64,000 bases of DNA from contig JAJDVX010000027.1 of assembly GCA_022825895.1 (NCBI GenBank), forward strand, positions 59,528-123,527. Reading direction: 5' to 3'. A program made the translations under genes and the position numbers. Position 1 is the first letter of the stretch. Every line of letters begins with the position of its first letter. The notes below the pieces were generated by a model, which saw only the letters and a program-made list of their open reading frames with translations, did no database searches and was not told the DNA's origin. Below are positions 33,229-35,515 of the stretch, piece by piece. Source of the DNA: Chloroflexota bacterium. Its GTDB lineage: Bacteria; Chloroflexota; UBA11872.

Positions 33229-34752
33229 TTGGATTGGCGAGTTTGATCCTGGCTCAGGATGAACGTTGGCGGCGTGCCTTACCAATGCGAGTCGAACGGT
33301 ACGGGGAGGCTCTTCGGAGCGCCCACGACCGTGGCGTCCGGGTGCGTAACACGTAGCTAACCTACCGGTCGGTGGGGGAAAACTCCGGGAAACCGGAGCT
33401 AATCCCGCATATGGTCGCCTGGTAGACAGGTGGACGAAAGCTGTGGCAGGGGAACCTGTCATGGCGCCGGCTGAGGGGGCTGCGGCCGATTAGCTAGTTG
33501 GTGGGGTAATGGCTCACCAAGGCAGTGATCGGTAGCGGGTCTGAGAGGATGATCCGCCACACGGGGACTGAGATATGGTCCCGAGCCCTACGGGGTTTAG
33601 CATGGAGGAATCTTGCGCAATGGGCGAAAGCCTGACGCAGCGACGCCGCGTGGGGGATGAAGGCCTTCGGGTTGTAAACCCCTTTTCTGGGGGACGCAAA
33701 TGACGGTACCCCAGGAATAAGCCACGGCTAACAGGGTGCCAGCAGCCGCGGTAATACCTTGGTGGCAAACGTTATCCGGAATCACTGGGCGTAAAGCGCT
33801 CGTAGGCGGCTTGGTAGGTGTTCGGTGAAAGCCCCCGGCTCACCCGGGGAGGGTCCGAGCAAACCGCCAGGCTGGAGGCAGGCAGAGGACCGTGGAACGT
33901 CCGGGGGAGTAGTGGAATGCGTAGATCCCGGACGGAACACCAGAGGCGAAGGCGGCGGTCTGGGCCTGACCTGACGCTGAGGGGCGAAAGCGCGGGGAGC
34001 AAACAGGATTAGATACCCTGGTAGTCCGCGCCGTAAACGATGGACGCTAGGTGTGTGGGGGGCTCAACCCCCCTGCGTGCCGGAGCTAACGCGGTAAGCG
34101 TCCCGCCTGGGGACTACGGTCGCAAGACTAAAACTCAAAGGAATTGACGGGTGCCCGCACAAGCAGCGGAGCGTGTGGTTCAATTCGAGGCTACGCGAAG
34201 AACCTTACCGGGGTTTGACATTACACGGCTATCCCGCGAAATCGGGAGTTCCTTCGGGACCGTGTAACAGGTGCTGCATGGCTGTCGTCAGCTCGTGCCG
34301 TGAGGTGTTGGGTTAAGTCCCGCAACGAGCGCAACCCTCGACGCTAGTTGTATGTGTCTAGCGTGACTGCCGCGGACAACGCGGAGGAAGGTGGGGATGA
34401 TGTCAAGTCCGCATGGCCCTTATATCCCGGGCTACACACACGCTACAATGGCCGGTACAACGGGCAGCAACCTGGCGACAGGAAGCGAATCCCTTAAAGC
34501 CGGTCTCAGTTCGGATTGCAGGCTGCAACTCGCCTGCATGAAGTCGGAGTTGCTAGTAACCGCAGGTCAGCACACTGCGGTGAATACGTTCCCGGGCGTT
34601 GTACACACCGCCCGTCACGCCATGAAAGTCGGCAACACCTGAAGCCGGTGAGCTAACCCTTGGGAAGCAGCCGTCGAGGGTGGGGTTGGCGATTGGGGCG
34701 AAGTCGTAACAAGGTAGCCGTAGCGGAAGCTGCGGCTGGATCACCTCCTTTC
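33229..34752 (+). rRNA. rrs: 16S ribosomal RNA
   Basis: GAGTTTGATCCTGGCTCAG at 33239-33257. Universal cores GTGCCAGCAGCCGCGGTAATAC and GCATGGCTGTCGTCAGCTCGTG. 3' end ...GGATCACCTCCTTTCT (anti-SD). No 23S gene follows. Confidence 0.95.
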
Positions 34753-34974
34753 TAGGGATGACACCTCCCGGCCTCGGCCGAGAGGTCACCCAGGTTGAGC
34801 GATCACGCGGATCGCCGTTCACCAACGGCAGCCGCGCCAGACCCAAACCCATCGAGTCGACCGGAATGGCCCGACCTCGCACTCACTCTTGCCCTGCTAA
34901 GGAGCCCCACTCTTTCCTACGCGTCTCCGCGCTCGGTTCCCTGTGCACCTGTTGCCAACTGCTAGGCGCGGTCC

Positions 34975-35330
34975 TGTGCCACCATGTACGGGAGCGTCGG
35001 GCCGGTCAGGCGGCCGCTCCGGCTCACGCCGGAGAGGAAAGTCCGCACTTCACAGAGCGCGGTAGCGGGTAACACCCGTCGCCCGAATCGGCTTACGCCG
35101 GCAAGGGCCGGAACAGGGGCACAGTGACGATGCCCGCGCTCCCACCTCGGGAGCGCGGGAGTGAAACGGCTAACCTCTACCGGAAGCAAGGCCAAGTCGG
35201 GACGCCACCAGGCTGCTCGCCCAGTCCCAGGTAGGCTGCACGAGGCCGGCGGCAACGCCGGTCCCAGATAGATGGCCGCCCACGACAGAATGCGGCTTAT
35301 CGACCGGTCCGACGCTCACCGGTCATCGGG
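34975..35330 (+). ncRNA. rnpB: RNase P RNA (bacterial type A); boundaries approximate
   Basis: P4 5' strand GGAGAGGAAAGTCCGC and 3' strand ACAGAATGCGGCTTATCG (compensatory CCGC/GCGG). GGGTAACACCC and GTGAAACGGC conserved regions are present. P2 pairs GAGCGTCGG (34991-) with CCGACGCTC (-35317). I did not resolve P1. Confidence 0.8.
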
Positions 35331-35440
35331 ATCGCTCTCATCCCGTTTCCCCGGCGCCTTCTCGGTTCAGTACGCCTGGCCCGGTCCCCACCTGCCCACA
35401 GGTCATGCCGTCCCGCCCCCGCCGATTCGCTACAATAGCG

Positions 35441-35515
35441 AGCGGGGTGGAGCAGTGGTAGCTCGTCGGGCTCATAACCCGGAGGTCGTCGGTTCGAATC
35501 CGACCCCCGCAACCA
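35441..35515 (+). tRNA. Initiator tRNA-Met (CAT)
   Basis: Near-identical to the E. coli tRNA-fMet body (GGTAGCTCGTCGGGCTCATAACCCG and the GGG/CCC anticodon-stem pairs). The 1:72 positions are unpaired, as in initiators. CCA is encoded. Confidence 0.9.

Follow-up and report, generated by a model that had tools for sequence, protein, structure and literature searches.

Genes for RNase P RNA and initiator tRNA follow the unlinked 16S rRNA gene in a genus of Chloroflexota

Identity and borders of the gene cluster

In a genus of the phylum Chloroflexota, the 16S rRNA gene (rrs) is followed by the genes coding for the RNase P RNA (rnpB) and the initiator tRNA-Met, and together they form a genuine stable-RNA gene cluster which is conserved across the genus. 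In the window (the whole stretch of 64,000 nucleotides analysed here, to which all positions refer), Rfam cmscan at gathering thresholds identified the following RNA genes, all on one strand and inside 2.3 kb:

33231-34751, + strand: rrs, complete 16S rRNA gene (RF00177 SSU_rRNA_bacteria, 1462 bits, model positions 1-1533)
34992-35317, + strand: rnpB, RF00010 RNaseP_bact_a plus helix P1 (Rfam span 34998-35315)
35441-35515, + strand: initiator tRNA-Met (CAU) with encoded CCA (ARAGORN; RF00005, 64 bits at 35441-35512)

The 16S rRNA gene is a full-length RF00177 match above the gathering score. An earlier note, made from the letters of this DNA alone, had proposed the order 16S rRNA, RNase P RNA and initiator tRNA, and both the genes and their order are real according to cmscan and ARAGORN; the SSU, RNaseP_bact_a and tRNA models which it had named for a cmscan check were all matched. 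The motifs it quoted each occur exactly once, with GGATCACCTCCTTTCT at 34738, GGAAAGTCCGC at 35036, GCGGCTTATCG at 35292, GTGAAACGG at 35161 and GGTAACACCC at 35068. Its borders require correction, with rnpB measured at 34992-35317 rather than ~34975-35330, and the gap between the 16S rRNA gene and rnpB, given as ~220 nt, measures 240 nt to the base of helix P1 and 246 nt to the Rfam start. No LSU rRNA match was obtained with cmscan across the whole 64 kb, in agreement with the claim that no 23S rRNA gene follows, and within the window the 16S rRNA gene has 23S-free flanks of at least 28 kb downstream and at least 33 kb upstream. It is thus an unlinked rRNA gene in the sense of a 23S rRNA gene located >1500 bp downstream or absent (10.1101/705046). 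The 341F/EUB338 site in the 16S rRNA gene is divergent in the genus, so that common primers and probes may miss these organisms.

The RNase P RNA and initiator tRNA genes

The rnpB gene matches RF00010 over model positions 1-367 with 177 bits (gathering score 100; E 1.7e-55), and both strands of P4 are present (GGAAAGTCCGC and GCGGCTTATCG, at the positions given above). Its 5' and 3' ends are joined by helix P1, in which 34992-35007 and 35302-35317 form 16 bp, one of them a G-U pair. The RF00010 alignment skips 43 model positions, from J12/13 to the closing strand of P11, which leaves the RNA without P13/P14; there is also an insertion of 16 nt relative to the model and an extra hairpin at 35089-35100, a putative P10.1. 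The designation as type A in the earlier note is therefore sound as regards the Rfam family, but not as regards P13/P14, the absence of which recalls the Thermomicrobium 'type C' form, described as lacking these helices (PMC2858038). The window rnpB shares with the published description of the type C RNA of Thermomicrobium roseum, a member of the same phylum, the lack of P13/P14 and an extra helix near P10, with P15-P18 aligning to the class A model (PMC2858038).

The tRNA gene at 35441-35515 is called as tRNA-Met with a CAT anticodon by ARAGORN, and its assignment as an initiator, which had also been claimed beforehand, is upheld by the signatures read from its sequence, namely the G29-G31:C39-C41 anticodon stem, A11:U24 and the encoded CCA. 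Position 1:72 is A1 x A72 and forms no Watson-Crick pair, the usual form being C x A. C1 x A72 is found in the initiator tRNA of the distant Chloroflexota metagenome-assembled genome (MAG) L015, while the tRNA of the close relative L001 has the weak pair A1:U72.

Conservation of the gene order in relatives

The rrs-rnpB-tRNA order is found in six further assemblies of the genus (L001, L007, L008, L010, L014 and L016). L001 is an NCBI MAG, ~95% identical in DNA, which covers the whole region between the upstream PALP gene and the tRNA, both included, while L007, L008 and L010 are further MAGs with the same order, of which L010 spans PALP, a riboswitch, 16S, rnpB, tRNA and hicB. The order in L008 lies on a 103 kb contig and that in L016 on a 3.5 Mb chromosome record (OY764080.1, a complete chromosome), whereas in L014 it can be followed into the tRNA, where a scaffold gap interrupts it; in L009, rrs-rnpB is visible up to the contig end. 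The 16S rRNA genes share 97.2-99.9% identity (L001, L008, L009, L010 and L016). The earlier note had considered that an assembly error could have joined rrs to unrelated sequence, for which the contig would have to be collapsed or chimeric at this gene. Short-read metagenome contigs of this organism do break in or near the 16S rRNA gene, and five of them (L002-L006) end at positions corresponding to 33265-34321 of the window. However, the same join occurs in the six independent assemblies, and is complete in L001, L010, the 103 kb contig of L008 and the L016 chromosome, so that an artefact is already refuted and its probability is negligible. The gene after the tRNA in L001 appears PPK2-like by eye from its translation. 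An island insertion at the tRNA was also considered in L001; by the same by-eye translation the following gene is not integrase-like, and no conclusion is drawn.

Beyond the genus, the pattern scans of the collection cover spacings of 252-312 nt between the 16S-end motif and the P4 motif only, so that the locus counts are lower bounds. Two of the pattern hits were rejected: in L013 the 16S-end motif lies in a protein-coding region beside rnpB with no 16S rRNA gene, and in L017 a real 16S end is followed by a strong terminator, while the P4-like motif lies outside any rnpB. In L015, the 16S rRNA gene (4574-6173) is followed by rnpB (6406-6709), tRNA-Met (6730-6804) and a 23S rRNA gene from 7205, which is visible for its first 240 nt only, so that the ribozyme and tRNA genes are located inside the 16S-23S spacer. 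Over its whole length the 16S rRNA gene of L015 shares 75% identity with that of the window, a value which rises to 81% in the 3' domain. Another clade, comprising L011, L018 and L019, carries 16S, rnpB and tRNA-Glu, and L020 agrees with it up to the end of its contig. In the planctomycete L012, rnpB follows the 16S rRNA gene, with a long T-rich tract after the 16S trailer and a TATAAT box for rnpB.

The rrs-rnpB-tRNAfMet order is old, judging from L015, which still has 16S, rnpB, tRNAfMet and 23S in succession. Most simply, the arrangement in the window would be an L015-type operon in which the 23S part is no longer attached after the tRNA, a scenario of an ancestral operon for which L015, with the first 240 nt of its 23S rRNA gene, would be the single linked example.

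Elements upstream of and between the genes

The following elements were located around the three genes:

32931-32958, + strand: putative rrs promoter, with a -35-like CGGACA (32931-32936), a 16-nt spacer and an extended -10 TGcTACGAT (32950-32958)
33063-33089, + strand: 5' strand (leader) of the 16S processing stem, starting with a boxA-like CCTTAACA
34876-34902, + strand: 3' strand of the 16S processing stem, the last conserved segment of the 16S trailer
34904-34975, + strand: hypervariable spacer from the 16S stem to the rnpB box (mean pairwise identity 40%; 71-95 nt in six genus members)
34975-34985, + strand: -10-like box TGTGCCACCAT, a candidate rnpB promoter, with a TGTG extension and the hexamer CACCAT (34980-34985)
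35318-35425, + strand: variable spacer between rnpB and tRNA (50% identity; 102-107 nt in five members, 225 nt in L016)
35426-35436, + strand: conserved box TTCGCTACAAT with the hexamer TACAAT (35431-35436); 4 nt separate its end from the tRNA

Upstream of rrs, an alignment of five genus members shows a variable region with large indels which stops, and conservation which starts, exactly at CGTGCTA(C/A)GAT, and an nnGACA hexamer lies 16 nt upstream of this extended -10 in four of the five. The element upstream of the L015 16S rRNA gene, TTGACA-N-TGcTACTAT, has the same form. On these grounds we infer that 32931-32958 is the rrs promoter, although it scores under the 9/12 rule of the promoter scan. 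The box form GTGCTAnGAT is common to this putative promoter and to that of the divergent SAM riboswitch. The motif YGCYACNAT occurs 16 times against 5.9 expected, mostly as copies of CGCCACCAT, and is not used as evidence.

The leader strand 33063-33089 and the trailer strand 34876-34902 are paired at 25 of 27 positions, with two mismatches; the pairing is also predicted by RNAcofold, and in its distal part L015 and L011 show compensatory changes. The likeness of CCTTAACA to boxA is judged against the E. coli consensus. A stem enclosing rnpB and the tRNA through pairing with a farther part of the leader was considered and rejected, the sole conserved stem stopping at 34902.

Identity across the genus alternates along the cluster, from 88% in the trailer (34752-34903) to 40% in the first spacer, 76% in the region of the rnpB box, 96% in rnpB, 50% in the second spacer, 94% at the tRNA box (35423-35440, directly after the spacer) and 97% in the tRNA, and indels in the spacers before rnpB and the tRNA reach ~120 nt. 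Within its region the rnpB box itself is invariant, TGTG[CT][CG]ACCATG being kept in eight loci while the next 5 nt are variable. Its hexamer ends 7 nt before P1 nucleotide 1 (34992), the very position of a canonical start 7 nt on, and the same 7-nt distance separates the box from P1 in L015 and L012, in both of which the hexamer is TATAAT. In L015 the promoter scan flagged CTGGCA-18-TATAAT at this place with 10/12 matches, against 0.0 expected in shuffles. The CACCAT or GACCAT hexamer of the genus, in turn, matches TATAAT at 3/6 positions. That an RNA hairpin is conserved at the rnpB box was rejected, as the window can fold one but the pairing is lost in L007, L008 and L009 when the alignment is inspected by eye; by the same inspection, the variable 5 nt after the box show no hairpin covariation, which speaks for a signal recognised in the DNA.

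The TACAAT box before the tRNA has neither a -35 element nor a TG extension, and if taken as a -10 its predicted start falls within the acceptor stem of the tRNA. No such box is present at the same distance before the tRNA-Asn (11162) and tRNA-Glu (52946) genes of the window; a TAGCAT box lies ~27 nt upstream of the latter. No genus member showed a -35 element accompanying either the rnpB or the tRNA box, and the promoter scan of 32600-36200 under the 9/12 rule yielded no call, both boxes falling below it. On the + strand, no terminator-like site was found between 34752 and 35600 by a scan which sees only a canonical hairpin with a T-run. The spacer between rnpB and the tRNA was rejected as structured or terminator-like, its fold being unremarkable (z -1.19) and the terminator scan empty; in L016 it carries a 120-nt insertion which contains an 11-bp GC hairpin.

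Transcription of the cluster

The earlier note had suggested that the three genes may lie under one promoter. The lack of a terminator-like site between them speaks for this, whereas the hypervariable spacers, with conservation resuming at -10-like boxes, speak against it. The sequence comparisons favour, with reasonable though far from full confidence, a modular cluster in which internal promoters are combined with read-through. The putative rrs promoter (GGACA, 16 nt, TGcTACGAT) would drive a precursor transcript from which the 16S rRNA would be cut out at the stem formed by 33063-33089 and 34876-34902, as in processing by RNase III, on which this step is modelled. As there is no terminator-like site between the genes, transcription starting at the 16S promoter may plausibly read through, and the polymerase could run past the 16S rRNA gene into rnpB and the tRNA. 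The rnpB gene probably also has its own promoter, given a box at -10 distance from P1 and the same geometry with a perfect TATAAT in L015 and L012; this would be a weak promoter, TGTGCCACCAT, an extended -10 without a -35, which would initiate at G34992, the first nucleotide of P1. The 5' end of the tRNA would be released by RNase P, and the same cut would remove a 123-nt tail from rnpB-containing transcripts. The TACAAT box, 4 nt from the tRNA, is too close for a normal tRNA promoter. All of these starts and processing steps are deduced from sequence. Against the modular cluster stand the 3/6 match of the rnpB hexamer, its lack of a -35 and the absence of any scan call in 32600-36200, and the conserved rnpB box could be an RNA processing signal instead. 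Furthermore, the L011 clade has rnpB without the box, so that internal promoters are not universal in this arrangement.

If the boxes were solely processing signals, a single rrs promoter would give rise to a 16S-rnpB-tRNAfMet precursor from which the RNase P RNA is excised. Consistent with such a precursor are the missing terminators, the gap of just 20 nt between rnpB and the tRNA in L015, where the pair lies within a linked operon, and rnpB of L011, L018, L019 and L020, in which the -10 box is replaced by a terminator-like hairpin and T tract abutting P1; in L011 an element of the same type also abuts the 5' end of the 16S rRNA gene, where a full stop is impossible. By analogy with E. coli antitermination, the boxA-like CCTTAACA in the leader would likewise favour read-through. 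Transcription from one promoter alone is nevertheless rather unlikely, as the rnpB box lies at the exact -10 distance from P1 and is a perfect TATAAT in L015 and L012, no covariation accompanies the sequence differences between the box and P1, and RNase P RNA equimolar with 16S rRNA would presumably be in large excess. It is improbable, too, that the genes are three independent transcription units which merely remain side by side after the break-up of an operon, with no present coupling. Such units would fit the finding that each gene has a conserved -10-like box in front of it, preceded by a variable spacer, and also the T-rich tract and separate TATAAT of L012 and the hairpin-bearing insertion between rnpB and the tRNA in L016. 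On the other hand, the rrs-rnpB-tRNA order is kept in at least three deep lineages, with 16S 3' domains ~80-83% identical, a persistence difficult to account for unless linkage is under selection, there is no recognisable terminator after either the 16S rRNA gene or rnpB of the window, and at normal start spacing the TACAAT box cannot yield a full-length tRNA.

A bolder proposal, tentatively advanced, is that in much of the Chloroflexota the rRNA unit has long included, after the 16S rRNA gene, rnpB together with an initiator or Glu tRNA gene, with the RNase P RNA made largely within the pre-rRNA and the internal boxes providing basal transcription only. Were this the case, RNase P would free its own RNA subunit from the tail by cutting the adjacent tRNA, and a single growth-regulated promoter would govern the synthesis of ribosomes, of the ribozyme which matures tRNAs and of the initiator tRNA. 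In addition, a start from the TACAAT box at or inside tRNA position 1 could make the initiator tRNA independent of RNase P.

Comparison with known systems and significance

As in E. coli-type rrn operons with spacer tRNAs (tRNA-Ile/Ala or tRNA-Glu), the cluster has a same-strand tRNA downstream of the 16S rRNA gene and outside its processing stem, which would be released by RNase P, and in L015 the tRNA is literally within the 16S-23S spacer. It differs in its tRNA, which is an initiator here and tRNA-Glu in the sister clade, in the gene immediately upstream, which codes for the ribozyme that would cut this tRNA, and in the absence of the 23S rRNA gene from the window. The rnpB gene of E. coli, coding for M1 RNA, is not known to neighbour rrs or any tRNA gene, and it possesses terminators and a full promoter; its transcription starts at the mature 5' end and its 3' tail is trimmed. 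By the geometry measured here, the window rnpB resembles it in a -10 box from which transcription would begin at the mature P1 5' end, and in a 3' tail which would need trimming, but has neither a -35 element nor a terminator. In yeast mitochondria, the RNase P RNA is co-transcribed with tRNAs in the tRNAfMet-RPM1-tRNAPro unit, and the enzyme processes the transcript carrying its own RNA subunit. While the RNase P RNA gene is grouped with tRNAfMet in both cases, the mitochondrial unit is organellar and of unrelated origin, its tRNAfMet is located upstream of RPM1 and it contains no rRNA gene.

The preprint by Brewer et al. reports the Chloroflexi as rich in unlinked rRNA genes (29 of 40 genomes) and likewise names the Planctomycetes (10.1101/705046). 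The window agrees with the unlinked genes described there in having no 23S rRNA gene within 1500 bp after the 16S rRNA gene, but a search of its text by terms gave no passage on rnpB or tRNA kept beside the 16S rRNA gene, the RNase passages so retrieved concerning RNase III (10.1101/705046). A search of open-access text for rnpB beside or inside rRNA operons returned no relevant paper. Unlinked 16S rRNA genes in Chloroflexi are thus already known, while the rrs-rnpB linkage is without a describing paper in that literature.

The neighbours retained by orphan 16S rRNA genes have so far received little attention. Here, rnpB and a tRNA gene follow the 16S rRNA gene in several deep lineages, in one of which an intact 16S-23S spacer holds both, and spacer typing and long-read amplicons of rRNA operons will meet a ribozyme-bearing spacer of ~1 kb in such taxa. 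Co-transcription of the genes, if it occurs, would link the dosage of the RNase P RNA to the synthesis of rRNA and have the ribozyme act on a transcript containing its own RNA.

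The 16S rRNA, RNase P RNA and initiator tRNA genes

RNA genes of this uncultured, GC-rich (~67% GC) Chloroflexota bacterium were called using Rfam cmscan at gathering thresholds, and tRNAs also using ARAGORN.

Features of the locus
31278-32525, minus: PALP gene, PLP-dependent enzyme (415 aa), 3' of the SAM riboswitch
32733-32838, minus: SAM riboswitch (70 bits), upstream of the PALP gene
33231-34751, plus: bacterial 16S rRNA, complete (Rfam, 1462 bits, model 1-1533)
34998-35315, plus: class A RNase P RNA, complete (Rfam, 177 bits against a gathering score of 100)
35441-35512, plus: tRNA (Rfam cmscan)
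35441-35515, plus: tRNA-Met, anticodon CAT (ARAGORN)
35859-36266: HicB-like antitoxin gene (PF15919, E 6e-47)

All three genes which the earlier note had read as lying in a row are present, the RNase P RNA passes its covariance model, and each motif quoted occurs once, where the note placed it. The proposed unlinkage of the 16S and 23S genes likewise holds, as cmscan gave no match to LSU rRNA across the whole 64 kb. Helix P1 of the RNase P RNA can be extended to 16 bp (34992-35007 with 35302-35317); rnpB thus spans 34992-35317 and the 16S-to-rnpB gap is 240 nt. Read directly, the tRNA-Met carries the initiator signature (G29-G31:C39-C41, A11:U24 and an encoded CCA), with position 1:72 unpaired as A x A, as opposed to the usual C x A. 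The A x A is shared by most members of the genus, while A:U occurs in the related L001, U:A in the second half of the L014 scaffold and C x A in L015, a distant Chloroflexota MAG.

The RNase P RNA is missing P13/P14 (43 model positions absent in the Rfam alignment), and a 16-nt insertion forms the hairpin CGGCTTACGCCG (35089-35100). The 'type C' RNase P RNA of Thermomicrobium (Chloroflexi) is without P13/P14, has a P10.1 helix and keeps P6, P16 and P17 (PMC2858038), and the RNA described here fits this type. The earlier designation 'type A' is therefore correct at the level of the Rfam family, but not as an architecture.

The 16S gene reads CCTACGGGGTTTAGCATGG at 33587-33605, identically in L002 and L003 (other contigs of this organism) and in the genus loci L001, L008, L009, L010 and L016. 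Bacteria normally have CCTACGGGAGGCAGCAGTGG at this site, that of the 341F primer and the EUB338 probe. Common V3-V4 primers and EUB338 may thus overlook this genus.

Conservation of the gene order in the genus

The flanking PALP gene is found on seven public contigs, and short-read contigs of the same strain break off inside or adjoining the 16S gene. The order PALP gene, SAM riboswitch, 16S, rnpB, tRNA-Met is repeated in L001 (GCA_022819765.1, ~95% DNA identity). A scan of 185,579 genomes, one per species, for a 16S 3' end followed 252-312 nt on by the P4 motif gave 10 loci, seven of them in Chloroflexota MAGs. Six of these seven belong to the genus: L008, L009, L010 and L016, which retain enough of the 16S gene, share 97.2-99.5% 16S identity with the window, and L007 and L014 were placed by 87-90% identity across the RNA locus. 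The 16S, rnpB, tRNA-Met order recurs in L007, L008, L010, L014 and L016, while the sequence of L009 stops within rnpB. The order in L001 and these further loci, among them a 3.5 Mb chromosome record (L016) and a 103 kb contig (L008), shows that the joins on either side of the 16S gene are genuine, and reading the cluster as an assembly artefact fails. Both pattern scans covered one 61-nt range of spacings, so that the counts are lower bounds; as the matches spread across all of this narrow range, the true frequency must be higher. L013 and L017 were dropped as chance matches.

Elsewhere in the window, 25336-26686 is a 1.35 kb segment with a Proteasome-family gene (PF00227; 25393-26133, minus strand). 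This strain, L003 and L004 have the segment; L001, L002, L005 and L006 lack it.

Conserved and variable segments alternate along the locus in the alignment of genus members.

Mean pairwise identity among genus members
34752-34903: 16S trailer, 88%
34904-34975: spacer (71-95 nt), 40%
34976-34991: rnpB box and discriminator, 76%, box invariant
34992-35317: rnpB, 96%
35318-35422: spacer (102-107 nt; 225 nt in L016), 50%
35423-35440: tRNA box, 94%
35441-35515: tRNA, 97%

A leader/trailer stem encloses the 16S gene (33063-33089 with 34876-34902; 25 of 27 positions paired, two mismatches). Its distal part shows compensatory changes in L015 and L011, and the pairing is also predicted by cofolding. 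The stem does not enclose rnpB, which lies 89 nt beyond it.

Transcription of the locus

Upstream of the 16S gene, an indel-rich stretch in the genus alignment stops at CGTGCTACGAT, from where conservation is continuous, and an nnGACA hexamer occurs 16 nt 5' of this box in four of five genus members. For the divergent SAM-riboswitch gene, the matching place on the opposite strand (32868-32877, minus) reads GTGCTAGGAT, a mirror of the rrs box. Both boxes are read as putative extended -10 promoters. The PALP gene is followed by a 90-aa ThiS-like gene; together they point to a possible sulfur-carrier pathway to cysteine or homocysteine under SAM control.

The earlier note proposed one promoter for all three genes. 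The block 5' of rnpB reads TGTG[CT][CG]ACCATG, and G34992, where P1 begins, lies 7 nt past the end of its hexamer CACCAT (34980-34985). The same box-P1 distance is found in L015, where the promoter scan gave CTGGCA-18-TATAAT (10/12 matches against 0.0 expected in shuffles), and in the planctomycete L012, which has a perfect TATAAT. The 5 nt separating box and P1 are variable and maintain no hairpin, favouring a DNA signal over an RNA structure. Transcription of E. coli rnpB starts at the mature 5' end, which the predicted start here resembles. On the basis of the common distance, the variable 5 nt and this parallel, rnpB probably has its own promoter. This putative promoter is probably weak, since the hexamer matches the consensus at 3/6 positions, no -35 element was found for it and the promoter scan did not flag it.

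Read-through from the rrs promoter into rnpB and the tRNA is also likely. The terminator scan gave no terminator-like site on the plus strand between 34752 and 35600, the 16S leader contains a boxA-like CCTTAACA, only 20 nt separate rnpB and the tRNA within the L015 operon, and rnpB in the 16S-rnpB-tRNA-Glu clade is without any box. In this clade, a GC hairpin and T tract instead abut P1, at 7-10 nt in L011 (3096-3125) and L019 (1156-1181) and ~35 nt in L018 (9990-10015). L011 also has a similar element (1351-1366) ~5 nt upstream of its 16S gene, a position at which it cannot be a complete stop; these elements are either terminator-like sites that are read through or processing elements. A single promoter is probably wrong, while the read-through part of the proposal remains plausible. 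Modular transcription is most probable: polymerase would start at a strong rrs promoter and read on into rnpB and the tRNA, and an internal rnpB promoter would add starts at P1. RNase P cleavage at 35440/35441 would generate the tRNA 5' end and also remove a 123-nt tail from any transcript carrying rnpB.

The TTCGCTACAAT box (35426-35436) is invariant across the genus and ends 4 nt before position 1 of the tRNAfMet. As a -10 element it would predict a start at tRNA positions 2-4; a normal promoter would need more than this 4-nt distance, and neither a -35 element nor a TG extension was found at the box. Loci of the tRNA-Glu clade have a TAYACT box 8-11 nt upstream of the tRNA gene, from which leaders of 2-5 nt would be expected. 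Either the tRNAs of these lineages would be nearly leaderless or the box would have another role.

The T stem of the L001 tRNA (676-750) is GGGGG/CCCTC, compared to GTCGG/CCGAC in the window, despite the 95% identity, and synteny between the two breaks off precisely where the tRNA ends. Next in L001 come a 13-bp GC hairpin and then a convergent gene, PPK2-like by eye from its translation. In the window, the segment 35597-36266 holds a 95-aa ORF without a Pfam match, with GGAG 5' of its start, that overlaps the start of hicB. The hicB region also lies 3' of the tRNA in L008 and L010 (86% identity), and the ORF start aligns in L016. No terminator was recognisable between the tRNA and the ORF/hicB genes.

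The arrangement in deeper lineages

The 16S of L015 (4574-6173) shares 75% identity with that of the window (81% in the 3' domain). Its rnpB (6406-6709) and initiator tRNA-Met (6730-6804) genes lie inside a 1031-nt 16S-23S spacer, the 23S starting at 7205; with the 1500-bp cut-off that Brewer et al. (10.1101/705046) apply, this locus is 'linked'. The order 16S, rnpB, tRNA-Glu(TTC) is found in L011 and the metagenome loci L018 and L019, and in L020 as far as its sequence extends. In L012, a planctomycete MAG, 16S is followed by rnpB. The second half of the L014 scaffold has a different rnpB directly followed by tRNAfMet, adding one more lineage with this pairing. At 1100-1500 of L014, a 10-N gap within the tRNA precedes this second rnpB (116 bits), whose own tRNAfMet lies ~15 nt on; the scaffold probably joins two organisms via a common tRNA sequence.

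L011 (DASYPD010000522.1) is a 5 kb contig labelled Gemmatimonadales. Its similarity to the Chloroflexota loci (80-83% in the 16S 3' domain, 61-66% in rnpB) is about that of these loci among themselves, and the same holds for its 16S leader motif; the planctomycete is much more distant (73-76% and 45-49%, respectively). These identities suggest that the contig may be mis-binned.

The presence of tRNA genes within rRNA operons is textbook knowledge. No report of rnpB directly 3' of 16S or inside a 16S-23S spacer was found in open-access full text, although prior notice is possible. Passages of 10.1101/705046 describe unlinked 16S and 23S genes as common in Chloroflexi (29/40 genomes), Planctomycetes and Gemmatimonadetes; neither these nor passages on unlinked operons in a paper on circularised genomes mention the rnpB arrangement. 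The arrangement is a conserved rrs-rnpB-tRNA module that persists with or without an attached 23S gene. It is a matter of how genes are organised across lineages, and the coupling it suggests can be tested, but it is not a new mechanism.
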